DNA of 64,000 bases, taken from contig DASWRM010000010.1 of the NCBI GenBank assembly GCA_036403155.1, positions 33,618 through 97,617 of the forward strand, written 5' to 3'. The position numbers were made by a program, and so were the translations under genes. Origin of the DNA: Gaiellales bacterium (lineage in GTDB: Bacteria; Actinomycetota; Thermoleophilia; Gaiellales; JAICJC01). Below, piece after piece: positions 1 to 14,688 of this stretch (position 1 is the first letter of the stretch; the number at the start of each line of letters is the position of its first letter). The notes under the pieces were generated by a model that saw only the letters and a list, made by a program, of their open reading frames with translations, had not been told where the DNA came from and did not search any database.

Positions 1-280
1 AGTCGATCTCCCGGTCTCGCGTGGGCAGCCGGACGGTCTTGACCCAGCCGGGACGGTGCTTGGGCGCCTGCTTCTGGTAGAAGACCTCGCCGTCGACGCC
101 GTTGGGGTAGCGCTTGAGCGTCAGCGGCCGGCCGCGAAGGTGCGGCATGAGGACGGGCGCGACGCGGCGGTAGTACTCGATCACCTCGCGCTTGGTGAAC
201 CCCGCGGCGGGATACAGCACCTTGTCCAGGTTCGTCAGCTTCAGCCGACGCCCGCCGACGGTCGCGAGCTCCTCGGTCAC
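1..280 (-). CDS. LigD-type polymerase/primase domain protein (NHEJ PolDom), N-terminal part only; the gene runs off the window
   Basis: Absent from the ORF track because no stop lies in the window. Reverse translation from GTG at 280 gives VTEELATVGGRRLKLTNLDKVLYPAAGFTKREVIEYYRRVAPVLMPHLRGRPLTLKRYPNGVDGEVFYQKQAPKH. This is the typical N-terminus of LigD polymerase domains. The GTG overlaps the ligase stop as GTGA. Confidence 0.75.
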   Translation of the reverse strand, partial: MTEELATVGGRRLKLTNLDKVLYPAAGFTKREVIEYYRRVAPVLMPHLRGRPLTLKRYPNGVDGEVFYQKQAPKHRPGWVKTVRLPTRDREID

Positions 281-1218
281 CGGTCGATCTGGTCGGTCGT
301 GCACTCCTCGGGCGGCTTGTCGTCGCGGAAGCGAAGCAGGCGCGCGCCGTGGCGGATACGGCCGCCGCTCGTGTGCTCGATCTGCACCTCGCAGACGAGC
401 TCGCGGCGCATGCTGTGCCAGGCGGACTCACGCTCACGCGACCACCGGCTCGGCCCCGGCTCGGCGTACTCGCCGGTGTCGTACTGCCGCACCACGTCCA
501 TCAGCTCGCGCGCCCGCTTGGCCGTGAACCCCGAGGTGTGGCCGACATGCCGGATGCTGCCGTCCGGCTCGTAGAGGCCGAGGATCAGCGACGCGACCGC
601 GCCCTTGGCCTCGCGCTCCCGCCAGCCGATGGCGACCGTGTCGATGGTGCGCTGACGCCGCACCTTGACCATGCCGACGCGCTCGCCCGGGCGGTAGGGG
701 GCGTCCAGCTGCTTGGCGACGACGCCCTCGCGGGTCTGCAGCCATGTCGCGGCGACCGAAGCGTCGGTGGTGTGCTCGATCAGGATCACGGGATCCCTGG
801 CAACCCGCTCCAGCTGCTCCCGCCGGGCGGTGAACGGCTCGTCCATCAGCGACCGGCCGTCCAGGGCGAGCAGGTCGAACGCGACGTAGCGTGCGGGCGT
901 CTCCTCCGAGAGCATCTTCACGCGCGAGGCGGCCGGGTGGATGCGCTGCTGCAGCGCCTCGAAGTCCTCATGCTCCCCGTCGGGAATGATCAGCTCGCCG
1001 TCCAGCACGTAGTCGCCGGGCGGGAAGCGCAGCTCGGGGAAGTACCGGTCGAGCGGCCGTCCGTTGCGCGACTGCACGGTGTGCGAGGCGCCGTCGACGA
1101 CGATGATCGCCCGGAAGCCGTCGAGCTTGGGCTCGTAGCCCCAGCCCTCGCCGTCCGGCAGCGCCGGAGCGGGGTTGGCGAGCTGTGGCTTGATCGGGCC
1201 CGGCGCTGTTCCGCTCAC
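277..1218 (-). CDS. ATP-dependent DNA ligase (stand-alone LigD/LigC-type ligase domain)
   Basis: Taken from ORF 277..1566, with the start re-set to GTG 1218 (VSGTAPGPIKPQLA). The adenylation motif KLDGFR is present, as is the OB-fold tail ending RLLRFRDDKPPEECT. The Arg/Ser-rich 116-aa 5' extension in the track looks like a high-GC artefact. Confidence 0.85.
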   Translation of the reverse strand: MSGTAPGPIKPQLANPAPALPDGEGWGYEPKLDGFRAIIVVDGASHTVQSRNGRPLDRYFPELRFPPGDYVLDGELIIPDGEHEDFEALQQRIHPAASRVKMLSEETPARYVAFDLLALDGRSLMDEPFTARREQLERVARDPVILIEHTTDASVAATWLQTREGVVAKQLDAPYRPGERVGMVKVRRQRTIDTVAIGWREREAKGAVASLILGLYEPDGSIRHVGHTSGFTAKRARELMDVVRQYDTGEYAEPGPSRWSRERESAWHSMRRELVCEVQIEHTSGGRIRHGARLLRFRDDKPPEECTTDQIDR

Positions 1219-1247
1219 GGTTTCACTCGTACACTGGTTGACACGAT

Positions 1248-2327
1248 ATGGCTCCCGGCCCTCTCTCTCAGACGATGGCCGCCGCCACGGCTGCGCGCGA
1301 GCCGGGTGGCGTGCCGAAACCGACGCGACTGGTCGCGATGGTACTCGACCGCTTCGAGCGCCTCGACGGCTCGCAGGCCGCGCGCGGCCGCGTGGGCGGG
1401 GGGATGCGGGTCGGCCTCGCCCTGCTGTTTGTCGCGAGCGCGCTCGCCGGTACGGTGCGCGCGCTGTCGGGCGGCGGCCTTCCCGGGCCGTCCATCGTGC
1501 TCCTCCTGATGTTCGCGGCCGTGCTGATGATGAACCGCATTGGCCGGTTCCTTCGCGACTGGTCACCCGTGCTGGTCATCCTGTTCCTGTACCTGGTCGG
1601 CTTCACCCTTGTGCAGCGTTTTCATATGCCGGTGTTCTACCGGCCGCAGTTCGACGCCGATCGCCTGATCGGCCTTGGGCAGCTTCCGACACTGCGCCTT
1701 CAGCACGCGATCGGGACGCCGCCCACGTGGCTCGGCGCCTATGCGGTCGGCACGTACCTGACACACTTCTTCTTCCCGCTGCTGGTCGGCTTCTATCTCT
1801 GGTGGCGCCGGAGCGAGGGTTTCACCCGGCTGATGTATGCGGATATCGTCGTCAGCGCGCTCGCATGTGTGACCACCGTACTGGCACCGACCGCGCCTCC
1901 GTGGCTGGCGGCGGAGCACGGGCTCGCTCCGGGAGTGCACGACGTCCTGCGGCACGCTCTGACGCAGATCGGCCTGAACGACCTGGCGCACTACAAGGGC
2001 GACGCGAAGGCCTACAACACGGTTGCCGCATTCCCCTCGATCCACGCCGCGTTCCCGGTGCTCGGATTGATCGCCCTCGTTCGCTACCGCGCCCCTCGAT
2101 GGGCGCAGGCGGCCCAGCTCGTGCAGCTGCTCTCCGTCTGGTTCGTGATCGTGTGGACGGGCGAGCACTACGTCGTCGACATCGTGGGCGGCGTGGCCTA
2201 CGCAGCCATCTCGTGGGTGGTCGTGAGCCGCCTCGCGATGGCGATCGACCGCTCGAGAGTCGCGAGCGCCGCAACGCTGGGGGCGGTCGGTCCGCCGCTG
2301 CGCCCGGCCGCCACCGCCGGCGACTGA
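1248..2327 (+). CDS. PAP2-superfamily membrane phosphatase / phosphotransferase-like protein
   Basis: The protein is polytopic. PAP2 C2/C3-like motifs are present (AFPSIHAAF and GEHYVVDIVGG). The exact start is uncertain. Confidence 0.6.
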   Translation: MAPGPLSQTMAAATAAREPGGVPKPTRLVAMVLDRFERLDGSQAARGRVGGGMRVGLALLFVASALAGTVRALSGGGLPGPSIVLLLMFAAVLMMNRIGRFLRDWSPVLVILFLYLVGFTLVQRFHMPVFYRPQFDADRLIGLGQLPTLRLQHAIGTPPTWLGAYAVGTYLTHFFFPLLVGFYLWWRRSEGFTRLMYADIVVSALACVTTVLAPTAPPWLAAEHGLAPGVHDVLRHALTQIGLNDLAHYKGDAKAYNTVAAFPSIHAAFPVLGLIALVRYRAPRWAQAAQLVQLLSVWFVIVWTGEHYVVDIVGGVAYAAISWVVVSRLAMAIDRSRVASAATLGAVGPPLRPAATAGD

Positions 2328-2346: not shown

Positions 2347-3441
2347 ATGGCTGCGACCGACCGGACGGCCCGGCACCTCGAGCTGCTGATCGACACGATT
2401 GCGGCCGTCAACTCCTCGCTGGACATCGACGAGGTGTTCGAGCAGATCGCTTCGCGCGTCGCCGAGGCGCTCGATACGGACGCGTGCTTCGTCTACATCT
2501 ACGATCAGGCCGACGATCTGCTCGAGTTGCGGGCGACGCACGGCACCCGCTTCGACGACCCGGCGCACCGGCCGCGCATGCATCTCGGCGAAGGCATCAC
2601 CGGGACTGCCGCCGCACTCGGGCGGCCGATCATGATCGCCGAGGCCGCTCATCTCGATGCGCGCTTTGTTCGGTTCCCGAACCTGCCGGAGGAGGAGTAC
2701 GAGTCGATCCTCGCCGTGCCGGTGATGGCCCGCGACCGGCTCGAGGGCGCGCTCAACGTGCGCACCCGGCTGCCGCGGGCGTTCGGCGACGACGAGGTGG
2801 CTCTCCTGACTGCGATCGCGGGCCAGGTCGGCCAGGCGATCGAGAACGCAAAGCTCTACGAGCAGACGCGCGCGCGGGTCTCCGAGCTCGAGTCGCTGGC
2901 CGTCCAGGAGATCCACCACAGGGTCAAGAACAACCTCCAGACCGTCGCCTCGCTGCTTCGCTTACAGGCGCGCTCGCTCGCAAACGACGCCGCCGGCCGC
3001 GCGCTCGACGAGAGCGTGAACCGCATCCTCTCGATCGCGGCCGTCCACGACCTGCTGACGACGGCGCACCGCGACGACGTCGACATCGCCGGCCTGATCG
3101 GCAGGCTCGAGGCGATGCTCGCCCAGGATCTGGACGGCCGTGAGGTGGTCAGCTCGCTGGAGGCGGTGGTGCTCCCCGGCGAGCGCGCCACGGCGGTCGC
3201 GCTGGTCTTCTGTGAGCTGTTCCAGAACGCGATCGAGCACGGCAGGGGACGCATCGACGTCCGGCTTCACCGCGACGGGACGAGCGCCGTGCTCTCGGTT
3301 GCCGACGAGGGGATCGGGCCGCAGCCGGGCCGGCGGGAGGGACTCGGGCTGACCATCGCCGGCGCGCTCGTGCGCGAGGAGCTGCGCGGGCGGCTGGAGC
3401 TGCTGGGAAGGGCGGTGGCACGGTTTCCGGTCGCGTCCTGA
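2347..3441 (+). CDS. pdtaS: Soluble GAF-domain sensor histidine kinase, HisKA_2 type (PdtaS-like)
   Basis: An N-terminal GAF-like region is followed by the H-box HHRVKNNLQTVASLLRLQ, diagnostic of HisKA_2. A HATPase tail follows (VADEGIGP). The gene sits directly upstream of an ANTAR regulator. Confidence 0.85.
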   Translation: MAATDRTARHLELLIDTIAAVNSSLDIDEVFEQIASRVAEALDTDACFVYIYDQADDLLELRATHGTRFDDPAHRPRMHLGEGITGTAAALGRPIMIAEAAHLDARFVRFPNLPEEEYESILAVPVMARDRLEGALNVRTRLPRAFGDDEVALLTAIAGQVGQAIENAKLYEQTRARVSELESLAVQEIHHRVKNNLQTVASLLRLQARSLANDAAGRALDESVNRILSIAAVHDLLTTAHRDDVDIAGLIGRLEAMLAQDLDGREVVSSLEAVVLPGERATAVALVFCELFQNAIEHGRGRIDVRLHRDGTSAVLSVADEGIGPQPGRREGLGLTIAGALVREELRGRLELLGRAVARFPVAS

Positions 3442-4010
3442 TCGCCGAGGACGAGACGATCATCCGGCTGGACGTCCGGGCCATGCTCGAGCGGGCAGGC
3501 TTCGACGTCGTCGCCGAGGCACGCGACGGGCTCGAGGCCGTTCGCCTCGCGACCGCGCACGAGCCGGATCTCGCCGTGATGGACGTCAAGATGCCGAATC
3601 TGGACGGCATCGACGCGGCGCGTCAGATCATCGAGCGCCGGCCGATCCCGATCGTGATGCTCACGGCCTTCTCGGAAGCTGCGCTGGTCGGGCGCGCCGT
3701 CGACGCCGGCGTCTTCGGATATCTCGTCAAGCCGTTTCGCGAGAGTGACCTGCTTCCGGCGATCGAGGCAGCCCGCGCGAGGCACGCCGAGCTCGAGGAG
3801 GTTCGCGGCGAGGCAGGGTCCCTGCGAGCCGCGCTCGAGGCGCGGAAGGCGATCGAGCGCGCAAAGGGGCTGCTCATGGAGAAGGACGGGCTCAGCGAAG
3901 CGGACGCCTTCGCACGGCTGCGGGCCGCCAGCCAGCGGACGGGAAAGCCGCTGCGCGAGGTGGCCGACGCGGTGGTCGCGGCGTTCACTGCGAACGACCG
4001 TCCGGCATAA
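3438..4010 (+). CDS. pdtaR: ANTAR-domain response regulator (PdtaR-like); probable non-canonical CTG start
   Basis: Receiver plus ANTAR domains (KAIERAKGLLMEKDGLSEADAFARLRAASQRTGKPLREVA). The track ORF starts at ATG 3483, which removes the conserved beta1 strand and acidic pair (RVLIAEDETIIRLD) that is encoded in frame upstream. No ATG/GTG/TTG exists in this frame between the stop at 3143 and 3483. Confidence 0.8.
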   Translation: MIAEDETIIRLDVRAMLERAGFDVVAEARDGLEAVRLATAHEPDLAVMDVKMPNLDGIDAARQIIERRPIPIVMLTAFSEAALVGRAVDAGVFGYLVKPFRESDLLPAIEAARARHAELEEVRGEAGSLRAALEARKAIERAKGLLMEKDGLSEADAFARLRAASQRTGKPLREVADAVVAAFTANDRPA

Positions 4011-4085: not shown

Positions 4086-4385
4086 ATGTTGCTTGCACTC
4101 GCGATCGTCGTGGCGGCTGCGCTGCTGTCGATGTGGATCTTTGCCCGGTTCGAGGACCGTGCCCCGAGCGACTTTCGGCGCAGCCTGCTGCACATGGGGC
4201 TGTCGCTGGTCGTCTTCTACATCGCGCGGCCGCTGCTGACGCCGGCCGTCGAGACGCTGGCATTTCCGCTCGACCGGTACGTCCTCGTGTTCCTCGTCGT
4301 GGTCCCCGCGCTGACGTACCGGTTCGTCAGCACGCTCTGGCTCCTGAACCTGGCGCAGCGCTCCGCGCGCTCTCGTTTCGGCTGA
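4086..4385 (+). CDS. Small hydrophobic membrane protein, function unknown
   Basis: This 99-aa ORF has about 3 predicted TM stretches. GGAAGGGAAG lies 6 nt upstream of the ATG. I recognise no family. Confidence 0.45.
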   Translation: MLLALAIVVAAALLSMWIFARFEDRAPSDFRRSLLHMGLSLVVFYIARPLLTPAVETLAFPLDRYVLVFLVVVPALTYRFVSTLWLLNLAQRSARSRFG

Positions 4386-4392
4386 CCGCGCC

Positions 4393-5313
4393 TCAGTGGT
4401 GGACGTGGTGGAAGGTCTGAGCGAACGTGTAGAACGAGGGGAACATCAGCACCACGAACATGGCGGGGAAGATCAGGAAGATGAGCGGGAAGAGCATCTT
4501 GATCGGCGCCTTCTGCGCCCGCTCCTCTGCCGTCGCCTTGCGCAGCAGCCGGCTCTCACGCGCCAGGTTACGCATGATCTGCCCGATTGAGACACCCAGC
4601 TGCTCGCCTTGGAGCACAGCGCGAACGAATGCCCGCACGCCCGGCGTGTCGCAGCGCAATAGGAGGTTGCGGAGCGCCTCCTCCGACGACAGGCCGAGGC
4701 TCTGCTCGCGGAGCGTCAGCCGCAGCTCTGCACCGAGCGGCCCGTCCACGTGCTGCGAGGCCATCTTCAGCGATGCGTTGAAGCTGAGGCCGCCCTCAAC
4801 GGTGACGACCAGCAGGTCGACGAGGTCGGGGAGCGACCGGTCGATCGCCGCGAACCGGTTGCGCGCCCGGCTCCGCACGACCGTCAGCGGGCCGAACCAG
4901 CCGATGTAGAAGGCAAGCGCGATGAATGCCAGCGTGAGCACGAACGGCGGCTGTGCCACCACGCCCAACCACACGGCCAGCCCCATCAGCGCGACGGTGC
5001 CAAGCACTCGGTAGCCGAGCAGCTTGGCTGGGGAGGTGTCGTACATGCCGGCGCCCATGAGCTGCGCGCGCATGTCCATCCGCATCTTCTCGTTCACCCG
5101 CCCGAACATGCGCTCGCCGAAGGAGTTCGCGAGCCGGTCGACTGCCGTCCGCACCGGGCTTGCACCCGCGGCCGCCTCGGGGGCGACGACGTAGCCGTAC
5201 GCCGGGATCTGCTCCAGCGTCTGCGCGGTTCGCGCACGAGGGAGGGCCAGCGCTCGCAGGAGCAGAACGATCGCGAGCCCGACGCATCCGAGTCCCAGTA
5301 GCAGCAGTGTCAT
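4393..5313 (-). CDS. tadC: Tad pilus platform protein TadC (T2SS F-domain family)
   Basis: T2SSF-type domain (LPDLVDLLVVTVEGGLSFNASL ... GVSIGQIMRNLARESR) with C-terminal TM helices. TAGGAGGG lies upstream of the ATG. Confidence 0.85.
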   Translation of the reverse strand: MTLLLLGLGCVGLAIVLLLRALALPRARTAQTLEQIPAYGYVVAPEAAAGASPVRTAVDRLANSFGERMFGRVNEKMRMDMRAQLMGAGMYDTSPAKLLGYRVLGTVALMGLAVWLGVVAQPPFVLTLAFIALAFYIGWFGPLTVVRSRARNRFAAIDRSLPDLVDLLVVTVEGGLSFNASLKMASQHVDGPLGAELRLTLREQSLGLSSEEALRNLLLRCDTPGVRAFVRAVLQGEQLGVSIGQIMRNLARESRLLRKATAEERAQKAPIKMLFPLIFLIFPAMFVVLMFPSFYTFAQTFHHVHH

Positions 5314-5325: not shown

Positions 5326-7218
5326 CTAGAGCTCGATCTTGACGATCTTCTTGATCAACAGCGACCCCGCCACGACCATCACGGAGGCCATGCAGAAGAA
5401 CACGACGCCGACCGTGGTGTGGAACAGCGGGTGCAGGTATCCCGGGTTCAGCACCGAGATTGCGAGGAGCAGGAAGACTGGCAGTGCGGTCACGATCCAG
5501 CGCGACAACCGGCCCTGCGCGGTCAGCGTCTTCACCATTCGCCGGAGTTCAGCCCGTGCGCGGATGTTCTCAGTCACCCGGTCGAGCACCTCGGCGGTGT
5601 TCCCACCTGCTTGTCGCTGGATCTGCGCCACGATTGCGATCTGACGAAGGTCGGCGTTCTGCATGCGGCGTACGGTGTCCTCAAATGCCTGATCGATGTG
5701 CATGCCCGCCTGCTCGTCGTTGACGACGCGGCTGAACTCGCTCCGCGACGGCTCGGACGCGTCCTCGATGACGACCTTCAGCGCGCCCGTCAGGCTGTGT
5801 CCCGACCGAAGCGCCGAGGCGAGCACCTCGAGGTTGATCGGCAGTTGCTCGGCGAACCGGGTCCGTGCCGATTCGGCACGCTGGTCGATCCAGGCCCTGG
5901 CAACGATGGGACCAGCCAGGCCGACCACCGCCAGTGCGGTCGCCCCGGTGAGCACGGCGAGCGCCAGACCGGCCGCGATGCCGCCGATGGTGCTCACCAC
6001 CATCAGTTGGGCGGCGCCGACGCTCACCCCGGCAACGTCGACCTCCTCCTTGAACCGCTCCCACCGCGGCTTGCCGGCAAGGGTGCGCTCCGTACGGTCG
6101 TAGATCGTCTCCGCGATGGCGGTGACGGCAGGCGTGCCGTCCTCGGGCTGCGTGAGGGCGTCCGGGTCGACGTAGCGGGTGACGCGGCGCCGCATCGCCC
6201 GACGGCCCGGCTGGACGACGACGATCACCGCGTAGGCGATCAGCATCGCGCACAGCGCCGCTACCGCGACCAGCGCAATCCATGAGGTCAGCAGCCGCTG
6301 CCACACGGTCGGGTTGTAGGAGGCGGTCGTGTCCTTGATCTCGGGCGCCCGGTAGCGGAACACCGGCGCCGTGCCATAGCCGTCGACCGACACCTGCACG
6401 TCGACGTCGGCGCCGGCGCGCGAGGGGGAGACGTACCGAAGCACGTACTGGTTGGCCAGCTGCACCCCGAGCTGGTTGAAGATCCCTCCCAGCTGCCTCG
6501 AGGTCGGCGCGTCAGTGTACGTGCCCCCGGCCCCTTGGGCCAGATCGGTCAGCGTGGTGGCATCGAAGCCCTTCCCCTCAAGCCCGACCGTGAAGATCCG
6601 CACGCCACCGTTCACGGCGTTGCCGGTGACCTCGTTCAGCGACCCCGTGCTCCCCGTATCAGCGCCGTCCGAGAGCAGGACGACCGATCCGGACTTGATG
6701 TGCGCGGAGGTGAGCATCGAGATCGCCTGGTCGGCGGCGTCGAAGATGTGCGTCCCGCTGTGTAGGGCCGGTTCGTGCGCCAGCGCGGCTGCGATCTCGC
6801 TCGCGTCGGTCGTGAACGGCAGCAGCGTCTGCGGCGTACGGCTGAACGCGACGACTGCGATCGGCTGGTTCGGCGTCCGCTGTGCGACGAAGGCACGGGC
6901 GGCCTTCATGGCGTCGGCGATCGGCGCTCCGTGCATGCTCTCGCTGGCATCGATCACGAGCACGACGCCGAAGCGATTGGAGCTCGCGTCGCCACCTGCG
7001 ACCGTGATGCCCGAGACCGGGGAGTCGTTCTCGGTGACATGGACCTCGGTCGAATCGAGCTTGGCGCCGGGCGGCAGCGTGAGCACGTAGCTGCGGCTCG
7101 GCCAGCCGAGCGAGCTGGCGCCCGAAACCGACAGGCCCGTGTCGCCGGCGAATGCCGGAGTCGCCGCGAGCCCGGCGCAGATGGTGACGATCAGGGCAGT
7201 GAGGATGCGACGTTTCAT
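5326..7218 (-). CDS. tadB: Fusion protein: signal peptide, extracytoplasmic von Willebrand A domain, then TadB platform (T2SS F) domain
   Basis: Signal peptide MKRRILTALIVTICAGLAATPAFAG. VWA domain with MIDAS-like VVLVIDASESMHG. A TM helix follows, then the T2SSF domain (LPINLEVLASALRSGHSLTGAL ... IAIVAQIQRQAGGNTAEVL). The ATG overlaps the tadA stop (ATGA). Confidence 0.85.
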   Translation of the reverse strand: MKRRILTALIVTICAGLAATPAFAGDTGLSVSGASSLGWPSRSYVLTLPPGAKLDSTEVHVTENDSPVSGITVAGGDASSNRFGVVLVIDASESMHGAPIADAMKAARAFVAQRTPNQPIAVVAFSRTPQTLLPFTTDASEIAAALAHEPALHSGTHIFDAADQAISMLTSAHIKSGSVVLLSDGADTGSTGSLNEVTGNAVNGGVRIFTVGLEGKGFDATTLTDLAQGAGGTYTDAPTSRQLGGIFNQLGVQLANQYVLRYVSPSRAGADVDVQVSVDGYGTAPVFRYRAPEIKDTTASYNPTVWQRLLTSWIALVAVAALCAMLIAYAVIVVVQPGRRAMRRRVTRYVDPDALTQPEDGTPAVTAIAETIYDRTERTLAGKPRWERFKEEVDVAGVSVGAAQLMVVSTIGGIAAGLALAVLTGATALAVVGLAGPIVARAWIDQRAESARTRFAEQLPINLEVLASALRSGHSLTGALKVVIEDASEPSRSEFSRVVNDEQAGMHIDQAFEDTVRRMQNADLRQIAIVAQIQRQAGGNTAEVLDRVTENIRARAELRRMVKTLTAQGRLSRWIVTALPVFLLLAISVLNPGYLHPLFHTTVGVVFFCMASVMVVAGSLLIKKIVKIEL

Positions 7219-8576
7219 GCCCGCACGCCCGCGAGCTTTCCGGCCGGGACGCCGCCCGGCTCGTGGAACGTGCCGTCCGGCAGCTCGACACCGTGCTTCC
7301 GGAACTTGTCGACGAAGCTCGGCCGAAGCCCGGTGGCCTCGAGCCGGCCTGTGACCACCCGGTCGGTGGTGACGCGGTCGAACCGGAACGCAAAGATGTC
7401 CTGGAGCGTGACGACATCGGACTCCATCCGCTGAACCTCCGTGATGGCGGTGACGCGGCGTGAGCCGTCCTCCAGCCGCTCGAGGTGGACGAGCAGGTCG
7501 AGCGCTCCTGCCACCTGCTGGCGGATCGCTCGCACCGGCAGGTCGAAGCCGGCCATCAGCACCATCGTCTCGATGCGCGCGAGTGCGTCGCGCGTGCCGT
7601 TGGCGTGCACGGTCGACAGCGACCCGTCATGGCCGGTGTTCATTGCCTGCAGCATGTCCAGGGCCTCGGCCCCGCGGACCTCGCCGACGATGATTCGGTC
7701 CGGCCGCATCCGCAGCGCGTTGCGGACCAGCTCGCGGATCGGGACCTCGCCCTCGCCCTCGATGTTCTTGGGGCGGGCCTCAAGGCGGAGCACGTGCCGC
7801 TGGCCGAGCTTCAGCTCGGCGGCGTCCTCGATGGTGACGATGCGCTGGTCGTTGGGCACGGCCTGGCTGAGCGCATTGAGCAGCGTCGTCTTCCCAGAGC
7901 CGGTACCGCCGGAGATGAGGATGTTCAGCTCCGCGCGGACGCAGCGGTGGAGGAAATCGACGGTCTCCTCGGACAGCGAGCCGAGGCCGACCATGTCCTC
8001 CAGTGACAGCCGCCGCTCGCCGAACTTGCGGATCGTGACGAGCGGGCCCGACAAGGAGAGCGGCGGGATCACCGCGTTGACGCGCGAGCCGTCGGGCAGG
8101 CGGGCGTCCACCATGGGTGAGGACTCATCGATGCGACGCCCGACCTGGGCGACGATCTTGTTGATGATGCGCCGCAGGTGCGACTCGTCCTGGAAGCGGA
8201 TCGGCACCTCGTAGAGACGGCCGGCGCGCTCAACCCAGACGTCGAGCGGCCCGTTGATCATGATCTCCGTCACAGAGTCGTCGGCCAGCAGTCGCTCGAT
8301 CGGGCCATGCCCGAGGATGTCGTCGGCAACCGCCTCGGCCACGAGTGCGCGGTCTTCTCGCGACAGGCCCGGCTCGGCGCGCAGGTGTCCGTCGATCGAG
8401 GACGCGACGTGGTCGCGCAGCGCGTCGCGATCTATCGCGGTGTTCGACAGCTTCGGCCCGACCTCCGAGATCACCGCCATGTGCACGCGGTTCTTGATGT
8501 CGGCGAAGGGGTCGGCCTCGAAGCTGCGCTCGTGCTGCTCGCGGCCGGCCGTGAGTCGTTCGTGGAGTTCCATCAA
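7215..8576 (-). CDS. tadA: Tad pilus secretion ATPase TadA/CpaF
   Basis: T2SSE-family ATPase with Walker A ISGGTGSGKTTLLNAL and conserved RPDRIIVGEVRGAEALDMLQAMNTGHDGS. Confidence 0.95.
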   Translation of the reverse strand: MMELHERLTAGREQHERSFEADPFADIKNRVHMAVISEVGPKLSNTAIDRDALRDHVASSIDGHLRAEPGLSREDRALVAEAVADDILGHGPIERLLADDSVTEIMINGPLDVWVERAGRLYEVPIRFQDESHLRRIINKIVAQVGRRIDESSPMVDARLPDGSRVNAVIPPLSLSGPLVTIRKFGERRLSLEDMVGLGSLSEETVDFLHRCVRAELNILISGGTGSGKTTLLNALSQAVPNDQRIVTIEDAAELKLGQRHVLRLEARPKNIEGEGEVPIRELVRNALRMRPDRIIVGEVRGAEALDMLQAMNTGHDGSLSTVHANGTRDALARIETMVLMAGFDLPVRAIRQQVAGALDLLVHLERLEDGSRRVTAITEVQRMESDVVTLQDIFAFRFDRVTTDRVVTGRLEATGLRPSFVDKFRKHGVELPDGTFHEPGGVPAGKLAGVRA

Positions 8577-9775
8577 CCCTTCCTTCGGAGCAGCCGGCGG
8601 CCGTCGGAGCCGCCGTCGGTGGTGGTCTGGGTGGAGACGACGTCCGGCTGGTAGATCGCGGCCAGCTTTGCAAACACGGCCGCCGCCTCGGACTTCGGCT
8701 TGGCGAGCACGATCGGCTCGCCCTCGTTGACTGCTTTGGGGATCTCGCGGTCGCTGGGAATGAAGATCCCGGGCTCTCGGCCCACGATGGTCGCCACGTC
8801 GGCGTGCGTGATGCCGACCCGGCTGTCGGCGCGGTTCAGCACCAGCGACACCTGATCCTGGGGGTAGCCCATGAGATCGAGCGTCTCAAGCCCCAGCCGG
8901 GTGTTCTTGAGCGAGAGGGTGTCCAGCATGCCGACGAGGGCCACGTCGCTGGAGACGTCGATCGAGGCGATCACCTCCGGCGTAAACCCGGGGGGCGTGT
9001 CGACGATCACGTATTGGTGCCGCTCGCGGAGCGCCCGGTACATCTCGGACAGGAACTCCACCGTGACAGCCGATGCCTGATCCGGCCGGCCGGGAGCGAG
9101 CAGCACGCGCAGCCCGGATCGATGGGTGCTCAGGTATCCCTCGACCTTGTCTCCGTCGATCGTTCCGGCGGCGGTGGCGAGGTCGAAGATGGTTCGGTCG
9201 GGCTTCATCCCCAGCGAGAGCCCCACGTCGCCGAACTGCAGGTCGAGGTCGACCAGCACCGCGGACGCGCCGGTCTGAGCGAGCTTCACCCCGAGGTTGC
9301 ATGCGGTGAGCGTCTTGCCCGTGCCTCCTTTCGGGCCGAGCACGACGATCATGCGCTTGGCCGCCGGCGGGACGCCATCGGTTCCCTCGCCGGGGACGTC
9401 GCGCCGCGTGATCGCCTTGTCGATCATGAACCGCAGCTGATCCGGAGTGAGCGGAAGGGTCGCGATGTCGTCCGCCCCGGCCGCGAAGGCGCGGCGGACG
9501 AAGCCGTTCGGCGATCCCGTGCAGAGAACGAGGACGGGACGATCCGGGTACTGGCGCCGCGACTCCTCGACGAGCAGCACCGCGCCGTCCGAGTCGGGCC
9601 CGCACGCCACGATCAGCAGATCGGTGCGGTTCCGCAAGGACGCCTCGCGCACGCCGCCGTAGCCGTCGACCATGGCCACGACCTCGACCTCGTCGTCCAT
9701 CGGCATTGCCGCCTTGACGGCACCGCGGTCGATCGCCGGATCGACGGCGACGAGCGCCCGGATCGTCCCCTCCAT
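8573..9775 (-). CDS. tadZ: TadZ/CpaE: atypical receiver domain fused to a MinD/ParA-like ATPase
   Basis: An N-terminal receiver-like domain is followed by the deviant Walker A VLGPKGGTGKT. It is coupled to both neighbours by 1-4 nt overlaps. Confidence 0.85.
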   Translation of the reverse strand: MEGTIRALVAVDPAIDRGAVKAAMPMDDEVEVVAMVDGYGGVREASLRNRTDLLIVACGPDSDGAVLLVEESRRQYPDRPVLVLCTGSPNGFVRRAFAAGADDIATLPLTPDQLRFMIDKAITRRDVPGEGTDGVPPAAKRMIVVLGPKGGTGKTLTACNLGVKLAQTGASAVLVDLDLQFGDVGLSLGMKPDRTIFDLATAAGTIDGDKVEGYLSTHRSGLRVLLAPGRPDQASAVTVEFLSEMYRALRERHQYVIVDTPPGFTPEVIASIDVSSDVALVGMLDTLSLKNTRLGLETLDLMGYPQDQVSLVLNRADSRVGITHADVATIVGREPGIFIPSDREIPKAVNEGEPIVLAKPKSEAAAVFAKLAAIYQPDVVSTQTTTDGGSDGRRLLRRKG

Positions 9776-10587
9776 TACTTCCCTCCGAACGAGCGCTCGA
9801 CGGCGACCGGCTTGACGCCGAAGAGCACGGTCTCGAGGGTGACGAAGTTGTCGCGGCTGTTCAGATCGAACGAGTTCTTCGCGTCCGCGCCGCGGACGGT
9901 CACCCAGAGTTTGCCGTTCTGGGAGGCGAAGGCCACGTTGGATGCCTGCGCATCGGTCAGCGCCACGACGATGTTGTCATCGCTCGTCCCGACCGTGCCC
10001 GCGTCGCCCGGCTTGACTCCCGGGGGCACGAACAGCACCGGCACGTCCTGAGCGATGATCTTCAGCACGGGACGCTGCTGGGCGCCCTGCTTCGGCACGC
10101 CGTTGCTGTCGAGCGGGATCACGTTGAAGCCGCCCAGGATGTCGACGTGGTCGCCGGCGTGCACGTAACCGATCGCGCCTGTGGCCGCATCCAGCGGGAT
10201 CGCGATCGCGCGCATGTCGTCCTTGACCTTGACCGCCGCCGCGTCGCTGGGCGCCGTCGTGAACTCCGTTGTCGTCAGCTGCGTGCCGGGGTAGACGGTC
10301 GCCGAGGCGACGCGGCCGGCGATCTGCGACGGATCTGTGATGGCGCCATCCTGGAGATCTCCGCGACGCACCTCCATCTGCTTGAACATGTGCTGGGAGG
10401 CGACGGTGTCGCCGGACGTGCCCTGTGAGATCTGCTGGTTGGCGACCAGCACCGGCACGCTCTCGTTGTCGTTGTTCAGGCTGTCGCGGTACTGCGCCAG
10501 GTAGACGAGCAGCAGGGCTACCGCGACTGCCGCGACCACCCCGCCGACCAGGACGGTTCCTCCGCGGCTCTGCATGATTCGTTGCAC
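9775..10587 (-). CDS. cpaB: Flp pilus assembly protein CpaB/RcpC (SAF-domain)
   Basis: N-terminal TM anchor, SAF-like segment (VLVANQQISQGTSGDTV) and position in the tad operon. GAAGGAGAG lies upstream of the ATG. Confidence 0.8.
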   Translation of the reverse strand: MQRIMQSRGGTVLVGGVVAAVAVALLLVYLAQYRDSLNNDNESVPVLVANQQISQGTSGDTVASQHMFKQMEVRRGDLQDGAITDPSQIAGRVASATVYPGTQLTTTEFTTAPSDAAAVKVKDDMRAIAIPLDAATGAIGYVHAGDHVDILGGFNVIPLDSNGVPKQGAQQRPVLKIIAQDVPVLFVPPGVKPGDAGTVGTSDDNIVVALTDAQASNVAFASQNGKLWVTVRGADAKNSFDLNSRDNFVTLETVLFGVKPVAVERSFGGK

Positions 10588-10609: not shown

Positions 10610-12460
10610 TTACTGGGTGAGCACGAGCTCGCACGGGCTCAGATCGGTGAAGTCGCACTGCTGGGTCGCAGGTGCGTTGTCAACTTTGTCAACATACTTG
10701 ATGAAGTAGCCGGCCACCTGGCCCTTGCCGGGATGCTCGTCGCCCGCGCAGGGGTCCTGGTTGCCGCCATTCGATCCACCCCAGCCGGTCACGTAGAACG
10801 AGGCGAAACCGAGCACGGGGAACGTCTGGTTGCCCGGCGACTGGAACGAGTCGAACGGCACGCGGAAGATGGTGATCACCCGGCGCGGATCGGTGATGGC
10901 CGGGTACGTGCTGGGACTCGCGCAGCCGCTGGTGTTGCCCGTGCGGCCGGCCATGCCGTCCTCGACCTGGCTGGGTGAGACGCTGGCCGTCTGTACCGGA
11001 ACGCACTGCCACGGCTGGGCGGGGAAGCTCTGCACCTTGCTCGGGCACGGGTACCACGGGGAGACGAAGCCGTTGACGGCGTAGCCGGGCGCGCAGCCGC
11101 TGATGATCTCGTCCTTGAGATTCGGGATGCCCGGGTCGCAGTCGAGTGCATGGGTCTGCGACGAGCTGGAGCTGAGGTCGATGATCTTGTGCGTCCCCGG
11201 CGTGATGTCGGCTTGGACGCCGATCTGAGCGACCGCCGAGTAGGTGGCCGGCGCGATCAGGTACGGGCCGTTGTAGGACATGCCGTTGAGGCTGAACTGC
11301 GCCAGCTCGACCGGCTCGATCGTGCCTCCCAGCACGCGTGCGGCCGTGCCGAGGTCTGTCATGCACTTCACCTTGCTGCAGCCGTTCGGGACGCTGTAGA
11401 CGTCGAACCAGTCGAGCCCCGACGGGCCGGGGATGGTGACCGCCCAGTCGCTGGTCGAGCCGACGCGCGTCATCGTGCAGCCGGTTCCCGTGCACGTGTT
11501 CGACCCGATCAGCCGCAGGGCGGTCGGGGCGGTGCCCGCGACCGTCACGGTGACGACGGGCGAGCAGGCGCCGTCCGTGTACTGGCCGTCGTACGCGCAG
11601 TTGTTGGCCGACATCACCGAGCTCGACAGCGTCGTCGCGCCGCCGCCCCCGGGCCGGCCCCGGACGCCGGAGTACCCTCCGGTCGCGCTGGAGCTCGCCG
11701 TGCAGCTGACCGGGGCGGTGCAGATCTGAGCGAGCGTCCCGTTGATCGAGAACGACGTTGGCGCCGTCGCGATGATCATCCCCACCGACACGCCGGCTCC
11801 GACCGGCAACGACACGGACGACGAACTGTTGTCCCATCGGGTCAGTCCGTTGGTCGTCCCGTCGCGGGTGAGCTGCGTCTTGGCGAGCACCGCGCCGGTC
11901 GACTCGTTCACCCAGATCGCCGCGGCGTTGGTGAACGTCGGATCCGGGAAGCCGATGGGCAGGAGCCCCTCGCCGACGTCCGGCTTGAGGATCTCGGCCC
12001 GGGCATGGGCGGTGATGTCCGGATTCGCGAGCCCGGCCAGGTTGGCGACCTTGATGAACCACGGAGCCCCGGTTTCGCTGACCGTGGCGTCGACCCACTT
12101 CGTGCCGCACGGAGCCCCCGCGCTGCCGGGCGCCGCGCCGCCGTTCAGGACGACGTGGACGCTTCCGGCGGCCACACCCCCGACCTGCGGGTTGTACGGA
12201 GCGCCCGGGTTCGTCGCGCTCGGGCCGGCGTACTTCAGCGCCTCCGAGTAGACCGCGCTGTCGACGCTGGCGGTGCACGGAAAGGCGTAGACGCCGCCAC
12301 CCGCAAGCACGGCGGCATCCGCCTCGATCTGGAGGTGGCGCTTGTGCTCCCACCAGTTGCCGATGTCGATCGCGAACGACGCCATCATCAGGATGACAGG
12401 GAGGAACACGGCCACCATCACGAGCACGCCGCCGTGGTCATGCTGCCGGGCGTAGGTCAC
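10610..12460 (-). CDS. tadG: TadG-like pseudopilin/tip protein with a large Cys-rich extracellular region
   Basis: Start re-set to GTG 12460, in a GTGA overlap with the tadE-like stop. The N-terminal Tad (PF13400-type) motif is HDHGGVLVMVAVFLPVILMMASFAIDIGNWW. About 570 aa follow, containing 18 Cys by my count. Confidence 0.75.
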   Translation of the reverse strand: MTYARQHDHGGVLVMVAVFLPVILMMASFAIDIGNWWEHKRHLQIEADAAVLAGGGVYAFPCTASVDSAVYSEALKYAGPSATNPGAPYNPQVGGVAAGSVHVVLNGGAAPGSAGAPCGTKWVDATVSETGAPWFIKVANLAGLANPDITAHARAEILKPDVGEGLLPIGFPDPTFTNAAAIWVNESTGAVLAKTQLTRDGTTNGLTRWDNSSSSVSLPVGAGVSVGMIIATAPTSFSINGTLAQICTAPVSCTASSSATGGYSGVRGRPGGGGATTLSSSVMSANNCAYDGQYTDGACSPVVTVTVAGTAPTALRLIGSNTCTGTGCTMTRVGSTSDWAVTIPGPSGLDWFDVYSVPNGCSKVKCMTDLGTAARVLGGTIEPVELAQFSLNGMSYNGPYLIAPATYSAVAQIGVQADITPGTHKIIDLSSSSSQTHALDCDPGIPNLKDEIISGCAPGYAVNGFVSPWYPCPSKVQSFPAQPWQCVPVQTASVSPSQVEDGMAGRTGNTSGCASPSTYPAITDPRRVITIFRVPFDSFQSPGNQTFPVLGFASFYVTGWGGSNGGNQDPCAGDEHPGKGQVAGYFIKYVDKVDNAPATQQCDFTDLSPCELVLTQ

Positions 12461-12936
12461 GCGCACCCCGCGCCGTACACGCCGGCCGGCAGCCGCTCGA
12501 GGCGCATCGTCGCGCTGCTGGTGAACGTCGTCTGGGTCGCGCCGAGCGCGAGGAACGGGATCCACTGGTACGTTCCGCTCACGGTGACCGTCACCGGATC
12601 ACCGACGTTCGAGGTGCCGTTGGGAAAGCTGATGCAGACCTTGGCCTTGCCGGTCACGGACGACGAGCCGTTGAGGAACTCGGCGGTGTCGGCCTGCTGC
12701 CTGATCTGGTTCTGCAGAGTGCCGCCCCCGCTGCTGGGCAGCCGTGCGACGACCGCCCAGCGGGCGCCCTCGTTCGCCATCTGCTGGGCGTCCTGCCAGT
12801 AGTTGATCGCGCGGCCGAAGTCGAAGATGCCGAGGATGATGAGCAGCAGCAGCGGCAGCACGAGCGCGAACTCGACCAGTGCGACGCCGGACTCGCCGGC
12901 GTGTCGCCGTGTGCGTGGGCGGTGCCGGGCGCTCAT
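12457..12936 (-). CDS. tadE: TadE-like minor pilin
   Basis: Start re-set to ATG 12936 (MSARHRPRTRRHAGESGVALVEFALVLPLLLLIILGIFDFGRA), which is the TadE N-terminal motif. The ATG shares one nt with the stop of the upstream flp gene. Confidence 0.8.
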   Translation of the reverse strand: MSARHRPRTRRHAGESGVALVEFALVLPLLLLIILGIFDFGRAINYWQDAQQMANEGARWAVVARLPSSGGGTLQNQIRQQADTAEFLNGSSSVTGKAKVCISFPNGTSNVGDPVTVTVSGTYQWIPFLALGATQTTFTSSATMRLERLPAGVYGAGCA

Positions 12937-13094
12937 CAAAGCTTGGATGCGACGGACGCGAAGATCGCGTTCAGGTCGGGGCCGAGGGCGACGAGCGTGA
13001 TCACGCCGACGAGCGCAACGAACAGCAGCACGAAGCCGTACTCGACCATCGTCTGGCCGCTGTCGGGATGATCGGAATGCTGGATGGTGTCCAT
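12936..13094 (-). CDS. flp: Flp-family type IVb pilin (second copy, 52 aa)
   Basis: Absent from the ORF track because it is under 60 aa. Manual translation: MDTIQHSDHPDSGQTMVEYGFVLLFVALVGVITLVALGPDLNAIFASVASKL. It carries the Flp G/xxxxEY processing motif. GAAGGA lies upstream. Confidence 0.85.
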   Translation of the reverse strand: MDTIQHSDHPDSGQTMVEYGFVLLFVALVGVITLVALGPDLNAIFASVASKL

Positions 13095-13112
13095 GACGAT
13101 CCTTCGGTGAAT

Positions 13113-13131
13113 GGGCCGCCTCGCGCGGCCC
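13113..13131 (-). terminator. Second GC hairpin between the two flp genes (GGGCCGC-N5-GCGGCCC)
   Basis: A 7-bp perfect stem read directly from the sequence. No U-tract follows. Confidence 0.25.
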
Positions 13132-13138
13132 GGGGTGC

Positions 13139-13165
13139 GGCACGCCCCGTGGTTCGGGGCGTGCC
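13139..13165 (-). terminator. Strong GC hairpin immediately downstream of flp-1; possible attenuator or mRNA-stabilising stem
   Basis: Perfect 11-bp stem GGCACGCCCCG with a 5-nt loop and CGGGGCGTGCC. It starts 13 nt after the flp-1 stop. There is no U-tract. Confidence 0.45.
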
Positions 13166-13177
13166 GCCGTGCCGGTG

Positions 13178-13348
13178 CTACAGGTGGGTGGCGACGCTCG
13201 TGAAGATCGCCTTGAGGTCGGTGCCGACCGTGATGAGCGTGGCAATCGCCACGATCGAGACGATCGCGAGGATGAGGCCGTACTCGACCATCGTCTGGCC
13301 GTCCTCGCTGTCGCGGCGAGCCGCGAGCTCGAGCATGAAGTCACGCAT
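13178..13348 (-). CDS. flp: Flp-family type IVb pilin (first copy, 56 aa)
   Basis: This is the C-terminal part of track ORF 13178..13579. The sequence is MRDFMLELAARRDSEDGQTMVEYGLILAIVSIVAIATLITVGTDLKAIFTSVATHL. A strong AAGGAGGGAAG lies upstream of ATG 13348. Confidence 0.9.
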   Translation of the reverse strand: MRDFMLELAARRDSEDGQTMVEYGLILAIVSIVAIATLITVGTDLKAIFTSVATHL

Positions 13349-13425
13349 GACTTCCCTCCTTGGGGCAGTGCCCCGTCGATGTGCGCCCGCACCGTGCGGG
13401 CCTCTCCGTCCGTGCGCCATGACCG

Positions 13426-13833
13426 TCACCGCTCCGCCACCACTCGTAGGCCGGAGCCGGACGCGAGCCGGGTGAGACCGGCGACGCTCGCGTCCTCGAG
13501 GGGTCCTGACTCGACCGACCCAAGGTCGTCGATCCAGGCCTGCCGCTGATCCGACAGGTAGACCACCATCGACGTACATGCAGCGAAGCGGTGGGTGATC
13601 AGCGGGCGGACGACTGTTTCGTCCAGGTAAGTGACGTCGACCACGACCAGGTCGGGGTCGAACTGCTCAGCCGCCGCGTCGAACGACGCCCCCGGGAAGG
13701 GCACGCTGATCACGTCGGCCACCTCGCGAAAGGCGGGCTCGAGCGCGCTCAGCATGAGCGGCGGGAACCCGACGAGCAGCACGCGCCGCGGTGAGCGGGC
13801 ACGTCGTGATCGTCGGATTCGGCGCACGTCCAT
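13426..13833 (-). CDS. Small receiver-like (CheY-fold-like) protein, paralog A; function unknown
   Basis: ORF 13426..13875. The start is probably ATG 13833, by alignment with paralog B and by the GACACT-N7-ATG arrangement. It shares the block PDLVVVDVTYLDE and VPFPG with the 15442..15837 protein. It lacks the N-terminal acidic pair of true receivers. Confidence 0.65.
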   Translation of the reverse strand: MDVRRIRRSRRARSPRRVLLVGFPPLMLSALEPAFREVADVISVPFPGASFDAAAEQFDPDLVVVDVTYLDETVVRPLITHRFAACTSMVVYLSDQRQAWIDDLGSVESGPLEDASVAGLTRLASGSGLRVVAER

Positions 13834-13840
13834 GTCGGTC

Positions 13841-13846
13841 AGTGTC
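13841..13846 (-). promoter_or_regulatory. -10-like box GACACT 7 nt upstream of ATG 13833 (leaderless-type)
   Basis: Read from the sequence. It parallels the GAGAAT-N6-ATG arrangement of paralog B. Confidence 0.3.
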
Positions 13847-13891
13847 CGGCCGCTCCCAACCGCCGGCCATCGCACGAAGCGATGATTCCGG

Positions 13892-13919: not shown

Positions 13920-14594
13920 TCAGACGCCGGCGGCCGCGCGCAGCTGCTGGTAGCGAGCCGCGGCGGCCGAGCGGTTCGGTGCCTCGAGCTTCGCGAGAAT
14001 GTGCGACACGTGCGTGCGGACGGTCTCCACCGAGATGCTGAGTTCCGCCGCCACGCCGCGGTTGGTCATGCCCGACGCGATCCGCTCGAGCACGTCCCAC
14101 TCCCGCTCGGTCAGGCGCCGCTGCGACGGCAGCAGCTCAGCGAGCGGCGCCGACGCGGCCTGCGCCCGGAACTCCGCCAGCAGCTCGGCTGTCATCCTCC
14201 GCGTCAGCGTCGCCTCGCCGCGCGCCGCGGCACGGATCGCGTCCGTGAACGTCTGCACGGGCATGTCCTTGGTCAGGTAGCCCATCGCGCCCGCCCGGAT
14301 CGCGCTCAGCATCGGCTCGGCAGCACCGTCCACGCCGGTCGCGATCACCGTCCCGCCGGCTCCGGCGATGGCCTGGATCGCGAACAGCGCACCGCGAGGG
14401 GCCGGCTCGAGCGACAGGTCGACCAGCACGACCGCGCCCTTCGCGCGCGCGGCCAGCCCGATCGCCGATTCGGCGCGTGTCGCCGTGCCGACGATCTGAA
14501 ATCCGCTGTCGCGCAGCGACCACTCGAGCCCTCGCAGCGAAAGCTCTTGTGAGTCGCAGATGCTGACAGCGATCGTGTCGGGAGCCCCATGCAT
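13920..14594 (-). CDS. LuxR/NarL-family response-regulator-like transcription factor, paralog A (orphan)
   Basis: Start re-set to ATG 14594, because MHGAPDTIAVSICD aligns with MDTAPNTPSAGICD of paralog B. It has a receiver-like domain (VLVDLSL, GYLTKD) and a GerE HTH (LTEREWDVLERIASGMTNRGVAAELSISVETVRTHVSHILAKL). Confidence 0.85.
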   Translation of the reverse strand: MHGAPDTIAVSICDSQELSLRGLEWSLRDSGFQIVGTATRAESAIGLAARAKGAVVLVDLSLEPAPRGALFAIQAIAGAGGTVIATGVDGAAEPMLSAIRAGAMGYLTKDMPVQTFTDAIRAAARGEATLTRRMTAELLAEFRAQAASAPLAELLPSQRRLTEREWDVLERIASGMTNRGVAAELSISVETVRTHVSHILAKLEAPNRSAAAARYQQLRAAAGV

Positions 14595-14595
14595 C

Positions 14596-14631
14596 TGCAA
14601 TGCCCGCCCCATTCGTTTTGTGGGCATTGCA
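14596..14631 (-). promoter_or_regulatory. Perfect 10-bp inverted repeat TGCAATGCCC-N16-GGGCATTGCA between the predicted -10 box and the luxR-A start codon
   Basis: Read directly from the sequence. The repeat begins right after the TATCGT box, and its right arm ends 1 nt before the ATG. The spacer is AT-rich relative to its surroundings. Confidence 0.6.
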
Positions 14632-14660
14632 ACGATACGTGCATGCGGCACGGCCGTCAA
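14632..14660 (-). promoter_or_regulatory. Sigma-70-like promoter TTGACG-N17-TATCGT for luxR-A
   Basis: The hexamers and the 17-nt spacer were read from the minus strand, in the 94-bp gap after the luxR-B stop. Confidence 0.5.
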
Positions 14661-14688
14661 CGCGGCCAGACGACGTCGTGCCGCGCGC

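Follow-up and report, generated by a model that had tools for sequence, protein, structure and literature searches.

The tight adherence (Tad) operon carried by a 64,000-nucleotide stretch of contig DASWRM010000010.1 from a Gaiellales bacterium (hereafter, the window) encodes a TadB platform protein with a secreted domain of the von Willebrand factor A (VWA) type fused to its N-terminus. The gene, which we call VWA-tadB, lies at positions 5326-7218 on the minus strand and is a single uninterrupted open reading frame (ORF) with an ATG start that codes for 630 amino acids (aa). Its product, VWA-TadB, is a true TadB subunit of the platform, extended at its N-terminus, and belongs to a Tad (Flp) pilus machine that has no secretin. 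We approach the role of the added domain through conservation, structure prediction and comparison with other pilus systems, and treat it below as a set of graded alternatives.

The fusion is real

Pfam places the two domains within the same polypeptide, each well above its gathering cut-off. VWA PF00092 matches aa 85-249 (E 2e-15, 57.9 bits against a cut-off of 23.8), with hits to VWA_2, VWA_3 and VWA_CoxE overlaying the same stretch, and a single T2SSF PF00482 matches aa 463-587 (E 1.9e-15, 57.4 bits against 25.2). A first-pass annotation made from the sequence alone had proposed this fusion, with the caveat that a frameshift at about 6.2 kb might separate two genes. The proposal is borne out, as the reading frame is continuous and fused homologues occur in independent assemblies. 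Both domains are present in all 120 best homologues, which are 44-69% identical to VWA-TadB and, all but one, 621-634 aa long. Across the junction between the VWA and TadB parts, the linker and the first transmembrane helix (TM1) align without gaps (homologue alignment A1). An identical protein (P0001) is already in NCBI as the product of a Gaiellales metagenome-assembled genome (MAG). The chance that a secreted VWA gene and a neighbouring tadB were joined by frameshift, sequencing error or misassembly is practically nil, since the same collinear, full-length architecture recurs in hundreds of independent assemblies and in the best 80 GTDB species genomes, and we found nothing in favour of such an artefact.

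The gene is also embedded in its operon. The start ATG of VWA-tadB overlaps the stop codon of the upstream tadA (ATGA), and a GGAGG ribosome-binding site overlaps its own stop codon, 7 bases upstream of the ATG of tadC. VWA-tadB is therefore an integral operon member, translationally coupled to tadA and located directly upstream of tadC.

Domain anatomy and membrane topology

We built an AlphaFold2 (AF2) model of VWA-TadB on 45 homologues, with a mean predicted local distance difference test score (pLDDT) of 80 that rises to 85-95 in the ectodomain. From the N-terminus to the C-terminus, the protein is composed of the following segments:

7147-7218, minus strand: putative Sec-type signal peptide, aa 1-24 (MKRR n-region, hydrophobic core, AFA/G)
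6973-7146, minus strand: N-terminal ectodomain beta-strands, aa 25-82 (AF2 strands at aa 30-33, 41-47, 59-63 and 72-75)
6454-6972, minus strand: VWA domain, aa 83-255 (Pfam PF00092; Foldseek matches to VWA structures)
6343-6453, minus strand: C-terminal ectodomain beta-strands, aa 256-292 (AF2 strands at aa 257-263, 271-278 and 287-290)
6283-6342, minus strand: linker, aa 293-312 (pLDDT <50 at aa 296-303; poorly conserved)
6214-6282, minus strand: TM1, aa 313-335, running out-to-in (hydropathy, RRAMRRRVTR flank, AF2 helix at aa 313-335)
6016-6213, minus strand: cytoplasmic N-terminal region of TadB, aa 336-401 (in AF2, disordered at aa 337-365, two helices at aa 364-396)
5878-6015, minus strand: TM2/TM3 hairpin, aa 402-447 (AF2, hydropathy; aligns with the equivalent hairpin of TadC)
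5512-5877, minus strand: cytoplasmic T2SSF helical bundle, aa 448-569 (Pfam PF00482 at aa 463-587)
5326-5511, minus strand: TM4 (aa 570-590), outside loop, TM5 (aa 602-626) and stop codon, aa 570-630 (AF2, hydropathy)

The signal peptide claimed by the first-pass annotation is recognisable in all its parts by sequence inspection and hydropathy, with a hydrophobic h-region at aa 4-25 between the MKRR n-region and the AFA/G site, and a hydrophobic N-terminal segment is present throughout alignment A1. We also considered a lipoprotein signal. The sequence VTIC, found within it, makes a poor lipobox, and its Cys is not conserved in A1; we treated the segment as a signal peptidase I substrate. The N-terminal beta segment contains a conserved E63-N-G loop, in which E63 is kept in 335 of the 341 family members aligned below.

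TM1 is followed by RRAMRRRVTR, in keeping with the positive-inside rule, and the T2SSF bundle must stay in the cytoplasm. Together these features lead to a topology of five TM helices with the N-terminus outside and the C-terminus inside, in which the outside loop between TM4 and TM5 (aa 591-601) is only 11 residues long and uncharged (NPGYLHPL). In such a topology the VWA module, lying between signal peptide and TM1, is predicted to be extracytoplasmic. This agrees with the order first proposed, namely a secreted VWA domain, a TM helix, the cytoplasmic T2SSF (TadB) domain and C-terminal TM helices. Two details of that description need correction. The VWA domain is there but spans about 170 aa instead of about 200, and the beta-rich segment described after it is found (aa 257-290), but in the AF2 model strands also precede the domain (aa 30-75).

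The C-terminal part is a complete platform protein. Residues 305-630 are collinear with the neighbouring 306-aa TadC and have the length of the plain TadB proteins (309-316 aa) encoded by Arthrobacter and Pseudarthrobacter plasmids. VWA-TadB is thus an entire TadB that carries about 310 additional residues at the outer end of TM1. Its T2SSF score, its polytopic topology with a cytoplasmic bundle and its tadA/tadC/flp context are those of a platform protein, and the C-terminal half passes every test for TadB that could be applied.

A conserved, predicted metal-binding site in the VWA module

The AF2 model of aa 83-255 shows alternating strands and helices in an alpha/beta, Rossmann-like fold. 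Foldseek matches it with probability 1.0 and target-normalised TM-scores of 0.7-0.8 to ANTXR2, the A3 domain of von Willebrand factor and integrin I domains. The sequence contains a DxSxS MIDAS (metal ion-dependent adhesion site), already noticed in the first pass, within the motif VVLVIDASESMHG at aa 85-97, and residues T156 and D184 complete the set. The MIDAS positions, identified from the sequence and alignment A1, are:

6937-6951, minus strand: MIDAS D90-A-S92-E-S94
6751-6753, minus strand: MIDAS T156
6667-6669, minus strand: MIDAS D184

We measured conservation over 341 full-length members in which both major groups of the family are aligned. The MIDAS residues are kept in 95-99% of them (D90 in 338, S92 in 333, S94 in 325, T156 in 325 and D184 in 336), and in the Acidimicrobiia/Nitriliruptoria-type group all are kept in 111 out of 111 members. 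The N-terminal module passes every test for a MIDAS-type VWA domain that could be made on sequence and model, and it is predicted to bind a cation and a ligand.

Within the group to which the window protein belongs, the regions differ in their mean identity to that protein. The T2SSF bundle is the most conserved (59%), followed by the VWA domain (49%), the beta segments (32-37%), TM1-3 (about 26-28%) and finally the linker (15%). The VWA domain is therefore nearly as conserved as the motor-coupling domain and sits on a linker that drifts. This pattern suggests that the ectodomain may bind a conserved partner rather than variable external ligands.

The two beta segments flanking the VWA domain appear to form one unit. 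The Foldseek alignments extend past the VWA domain itself, covering 313-468 columns, to proteins composed of a VWA domain and a beta-sandwich (4fx5, ArnB and ITIH1). Moreover, in two rare variants (P0247 and P0262) the beta segments are joined directly, with no VWA domain between them, and still run into TadB. Since both the junction in these variants and the span of the structural matches group the N- and C-terminal segments together, they indicate that the VWA domain sits as an insert between paired beta segments.

Distribution and natural variants

We searched 1.84 billion protein representatives clustered at 50% identity and obtained 1,586 matches at E <= 1e-30. Among the best 150, 115 are full-length (590-680 aa). 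Most of the shorter ones begin within the VWA domain, as would be expected if their gene calls were truncated. In GTDB data with one genome per species, 167 genomes match. The best 80 of these 167 all match over essentially the full length and are Thermoleophilia-type MAGs assigned to Gaiellales, Gaiellaceae and Solirubrobacterales. A search started from a distant member recovered the same fusion in Acidimicrobiia (Acidimicrobiales) and in Nitriliruptoria (Euzebyales and Egibacteraceae), within loci that have the same gene order as the window. A survey of the phyletic distribution, recommended in the first pass as a check, thus returns the fusion across Thermoleophilia, Acidimicrobiia and Nitriliruptoria. 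All named sources are Actinomycetota, and in these three deep classes of the phylum the fusion is common. Many of the source genomes come from soil metagenomes (Gaiellales and Solirubrobacterales), together with MAGs of Acidimicrobiia and Nitriliruptoria. The fusion is absent from 72,556 plasmid records, where only plain TadB is found.

Nitriliruptoria carry two copies of the beta/VWA module, and their proteins reach about 890-900 aa (for example P0265, in locus L083). Together with the VWA-less P0247 (locus L082) and P0262 (locus L081), this variant provides natural deletion and duplication experiments. We inspected the loci of P0247 and P0262 for a VWA domain relocated to another gene, over contigs that extend only a short way upstream. 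Loci of the Nitriliruptoria/Acidimicrobiia type also show a KaiC/RecA-like ATPase gene (AAA_25, DnaB_C) directly 3' of tadC (positions 11568-12590 in L083 and 11717-12703 in L087), which is absent from the locus in the window.

The Tad operon and its surroundings

Read in the direction of transcription, the operon has the order flp-flp-tadE-like-tadG-like-cpaB-tadZ-tadA-VWA-tadB-tadC, and this order is identical in all relatives with a long enough contig. A LuxR regulator and a small protein precede the flp pair in the order given for related loci. The genes accompanying VWA-tadB are:

4393-5313, minus strand: tadC, paralogous platform subunit of 306 aa (domain scan, collinearity with the TadB part)
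7215-8576, minus strand: tadA/cpaF motor ATPase (PF00437, E 4.7e-69)
8573-9775, minus strand: tadZ/cpaE-like ParA/MinD ATPase (CbiA, AAA_31 and ParA matches)
9775-10587, minus strand: cpaB/rcpC (PF16976, E 7.7e-17)
10610-12460, minus strand: tadG-like, pilin-like protein of 616 aa (PF13400 N-terminus)
12457-12936, minus strand: tadE-like minor pilin of about 159 aa (PF07811, E 4e-17)
12936-13094, minus strand: flp pilin 1 of 52 aa, with the motif GQTMVEYG (phmmer match to the flp2 ORF, E 1.4e-12)
13178-13348, minus strand: flp pilin 2 of about 56 aa, with the motif GQTMVEYG (most related loci have flp homologues upstream)

The true start of the tadE-like gene lies well inside a 311-aa mechanical ORF (12457-13392, minus strand). 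Mechanical ORFs are over-extended in this sequence of 70% GC, and spurious N-termini occur both on that ORF and on the 133-aa flp ORF (13178-13579, minus strand). We found no secretin gene in the operon or, in related loci, among the genes with a Pfam annotation. When the window was searched with the TadV of a related locus, no prepilin peptidase homologue was returned, and the gene for this enzyme presumably lies in another part of the genome.

Two tandem pairs lie directly upstream of the flp genes, all on the minus strand (13426-13875, 13920-14825, 14689-15372 and 15442-15837), each composed of a LuxR-type response regulator and a small protein of 131-149 aa with no Pfam or NCBIfam match. 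A match at E 1.8e-33 links the two small proteins, which are seen again upstream of flp in some related loci (L001, L006 and L012) and look receiver-domain-like by eye (DLVVVDV). Just 3' of tadC and convergent with it, a 99-aa hydrophobic protein is encoded at 4086-4385 (plus strand). It has no family assignment, and its homologues occupy the same position in the opposite orientation in L001, L003, L006 and L008. Further 3' of the operon are a sensor protein whose C-terminus resembles a histidine kinase (2347-3441, plus strand), an adjacent response regulator that looks ANTAR-type from its motifs (3483-4010, plus strand) and an ATP-dependent DNA ligase of the LigD/non-homologous end joining type (277-1566, minus strand; NF006078, E 1.9e-101).

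The TadG-like protein and the origin of the VWA domain

In published Tad systems VWA domains are carried by the pilin-like proteins TadG and CpaL (PMC12607857, PMC13170226), as the first-pass annotation had stated. It had also observed that the TadG-like protein of the window has no obvious VWA domain of its own. This holds: Pfam detects VWA in none of 46 TadG-like orthologues, and in the window protein a PF13400 N-terminus is the only match even at E <= 10. TadG-like proteins without VWA accompany the fusion in Acidimicrobiia/Nitriliruptoria-type loci as well. The AF2 model of the TadG-like protein (pLDDT 84, predicted TM-score 0.78) is composed of a long N-terminal helix and a mostly beta, Cys-rich body with many invariant Cys, 13 in alignment A2. 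The model has no match in the PDB at E <= 1e-3, and the body may represent an undescribed fold of a Tad minor pilin or tip protein.

From this distribution it had been suggested that the VWA domain moved from TadG onto the platform. The evidence gives no support to such a transfer. In a comparison that left the VWA domains of TadG and CpaL outside, the closest relatives found for the module are generic, free-standing secreted cassettes of beta-sandwich and VWA. One of them, P0260, is a Bacteroidota-type protein with a type IX secretion system tail in which the module is repeated three times (3xVWA); it is 34% identical over aa 50-302. The family TIGR03436 (acidobact_VWFA) matches over the VWA domain and the C-terminal strands with E 1.8e-17, and its 63.8 bits fall below the cut-off of 81.25, which identifies a related module and not a member of the family. 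That a free-standing cassette was recruited is no less likely than a transfer from TadG.

The position of the domain is not strictly complementary between the two proteins either. A Tad locus on an Arthrobacter plasmid encodes a plain TadB (316 aa) and carries VWA on a 489-aa TadG-like protein (27.1 bits), which fits the idea that each machine has one VWA, on one protein or the other. On a Pseudarthrobacter plasmid, the Tad locus encodes a plain TadB (309 aa) and shows no VWA anywhere in its Tad genes. One of the two actinobacterial plasmid loci with a plain TadB has therefore a TadG-like VWA, and taken together the two loci speak against strict complementarity.

Possible functions of the ectodomain

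The first-pass annotation had suggested that the module could gate or anchor the fibre. Among the functions that we considered, we tentatively prefer, at somewhat less than an even chance, that the ectodomain is a membrane-proximal, metal-dependent docking module for the pilus or machine components above the platform. With one copy per TadB, the module would stand on the outer face of the membrane. CpaG and CpaH of Caulobacter crescentus have been modelled in published work as a trimer of heterodimers, and if TadB and TadC formed the same assembly, about three ectodomains would surround the site where pilins enter the fibre. A partner that is endogenous and conserved could supply the carboxylate that completes a divalent cation bound at the MIDAS, and candidates for it are the priming complex of TadE/TadG-like proteins, the Flp fibre at its base and the CpaB ring. 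The module would then dock pilus components, or retain them, immediately over the platform of a machine that lacks a secretin, as the stationary counterpart of the VWA domain that TadG and CpaL carry in other Tad systems. Read as a Rosetta-stone hint, the fusion would imply that Tad-associated VWA domains act at the platform.

Several observations point in this direction. In the AF2 model the linker tethers the module about 20 residues from the membrane. Because this close tether is combined with a VWA domain that is the second most conserved region, on a linker and TM helices that drift, the partner is predicted to be endogenous and conserved. The highly conserved MIDAS speaks for an ability to bind a ligand. 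Furthermore, CpaJ, CpaK and CpaL have been modelled atop the CpaG/CpaH platform before assembly (PMC13170226, PMC12607857). A link to the VWA domains of other Tad systems is also favoured by the TadG-like protein of the window, which has none, and by the TadG-like VWA of the plain-TadB Arthrobacter locus.

Other observations weigh against a docking role. We ran a mirror-tree analysis on 43 loci, in which the ectodomain was compared with CpaB, TadC, TadZ and the TadG-like and TadE-like proteins, controlling for TadA. The partial correlations (0.44 for CpaB, 0.41 for TadC, 0.30 for the TadG-like and 0.20 for the TadE-like protein; 0.49 between CpaB and the beta part of the ectodomain) differ too little between components to choose a partner by. 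The minor pilins are thus not singled out as partners. Some fused loci have no adjacent tadG-like gene. The VWA-less variants P0247 and P0262 imply that the domain is not indispensable, and the Pseudarthrobacter locus implies that VWA is no general requirement of actinobacterial Tad machines. In rotary models the platform rotates during assembly. Were this so, it would be hard to reconcile with a bulky ectodomain that holds on to a static partner.

A sensory or regulatory role is unlikely, although of the alternatives it survives best. The ectodomain would bind an environmental ligand or a divalent cation and signal through TM1 to the cytoplasmic N-terminal helices of TadB, which would tune the TadA motor between extension and retraction or switch it on and off. 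VWA domains show allostery and mechanosensitivity, and PilY1 and CpaL have been discussed as mechanosensors (PMC12607857). The conserved MIDAS is consistent with this role, and so is the fact that TM1 runs straight into a conserved cytoplasmic segment (W386, R388, F389). However, the route for the signal is poor: the linker of about 20 residues is predicted with low confidence and is the least conserved region, and a floppy tether would hardly conduct a conformational change. Besides, these loci carry dedicated regulators of the LuxR type, and some related loci also encode histidine kinases.

The docking hypothesis has a stronger form, which we consider rather unlikely. The approximately three MIDAS modules might form a metal-dependent collar or clutch round the nascent Flp fibre and hold the priming complex or the fibre base. 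Such a collar would replace the VWA domain that TadG and CpaL provide at tip or base, together with parts of the alignment complex of diderms. It would also predict that the VWA domains of TadG and CpaL touch TadB/CpaG directly in model organisms, and it would give the type IV filament platform of these Actinomycetota an extracytoplasmic working part, beyond its intramembrane and cytoplasmic coupling.

Anchoring to the cell wall is improbable. Here the MIDAS would bind the carboxylates of peptidoglycan stem peptides, or an anionic wall polymer, and fix the machine in the wall of a monoderm, which has neither a secretin nor an alignment complex in an outer membrane. The missing secretin, in the operon as in the annotated genes of related loci, would fit such an anchor; a conserved VWA domain would suit a ligand as conserved as the cell wall, and the two-module variants of Nitriliruptoria could extend deeper into it. 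Against this, scans of the protein detected no LysM, SPOR, OmpA-like or PG_binding domain, and to our knowledge there is no precedent for a VWA domain that binds peptidoglycan. CpaB, the usual alignment component, is present in the operon, and a TadB fixed to the wall conflicts with models of a rotating platform.

It is very unlikely that the module is a tethered adhesin, a passenger that binds external substrates and uses TadB as its anchor with no part in assembly. The VWA domains of other pilus proteins are adhesins (Streptococcus sanguinis PilB, PilC1, SpaC and RrgA; PMC8179133, PMC12607857), and the module has free-standing secreted relatives such as P0260. Held within about 20 residues of the membrane, though, it lies below the cell wall, with external surfaces out of reach. 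Its conservation, second only to that of T2SSF, is unlike that of fast-evolving adhesins, and the strict one-to-one fusion and the synteny across three classes argue for integration into the machine.

Implications for Tad machines

Of all core parts of type IV filament machines, the platform proteins (PilC, GspF, TadB/TadC) are understood least, and this includes the way in which they engage pilins at the outer face of the membrane. The fusion described here, which is natural, ancient and conserved, puts a putatively ligand-binding VWA/MIDAS module directly on the extracytoplasmic N-terminus of the platform, and fixes the location of the N-terminus of TadB. It offers a testable hint that the VWA domains of TadG and CpaL work at the platform, and it points to how the outer face may be organised in monoderm Tad machines that have no secretin. 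What the VWA module does on TadB is something that we infer.

A full-text search of 8 million papers and preprints returned no description of the VWA-TadB fusion, and the 2019 survey of the type IV filament superfamily, the main comparison of these systems, does not mention VWA. The architecture is already in the databases, as reflected by the automated labels of the homologues ('type II secretion system F family protein', 'VWA domain-containing protein' and 'tight adherence protein B'). We know of no experimental study on the pili of Gaiellales, Solirubrobacterales, Acidimicrobiia or Nitriliruptoria.

Comparison with known systems

With TadB/CpaG, whose paralogue is TadC/CpaH, VWA-TadB shares the entire region from aa 305 to 630, which is the same subunit with a single T2SSF domain and five TM helices, and the same setting between tadA/cpaF and tadC in a flp-tadE-tadG-cpaB-tadZ-tadA-tadB-tadC operon. 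It differs in the addition of a 24-aa signal peptide and of an extracytoplasmic beta/VWA module of about 290 aa before TM1.

TadG of Aggregatibacter actinomycetemcomitans and CpaL of C. crescentus resemble VWA-TadB in that all are encoded in a Tad locus and carry a VWA domain with a canonical MIDAS on the extracytoplasmic side. In VWA-TadB, however, a TM helix joins the VWA domain covalently to the platform, and the domain cannot leave with the fibre. VWA-TadB also has a Sec-type signal peptide instead of a PF13400 or PF07811 match, and the PF13400 domain of the window sits in the separate TadG-like gene. Without a pilin-like N-terminus it is not a protein of the TadG/CpaL type, although it shares the VWA domain. 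The arrangement of the beta elements differs as well: in CpaL, beta-domains are inserted in the VWA domain (PMC12607857), whereas in VWA-TadB the VWA domain lies between N- and C-terminal beta-strands.

The module itself has counterparts by sequence in TIGR03436 proteins and by fold in 4fx5 from Catenulispora, the Sec23/24-like ArnB and ITIH1 (Foldseek E 2.5e-11 to 5e-10). All of these occur free-standing or in the cytosol and have no relation to the Tad platform. BatA and BatB offer a further parallel, since their VWA domains are likewise tethered to the membrane by TM helices and the fold matches 3ibs and 4jdu in Foldseek. We rejected membership in the Bat family, as NF047508 scores 16.7 bits, far below its cut-off of 380, and the gene lies in a Tad operon rather than in a Bat operon.

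Finally, S. sanguinis PilB and PilY1/PilC1 place, like VWA-TadB, a MIDAS-type VWA domain on a type IV filament machine (PMC8179133, PMC12607857). Theirs is located at the pilus tip, in adhesion and mechanosensing, whereas that of VWA-TadB is located at the base, on the platform.

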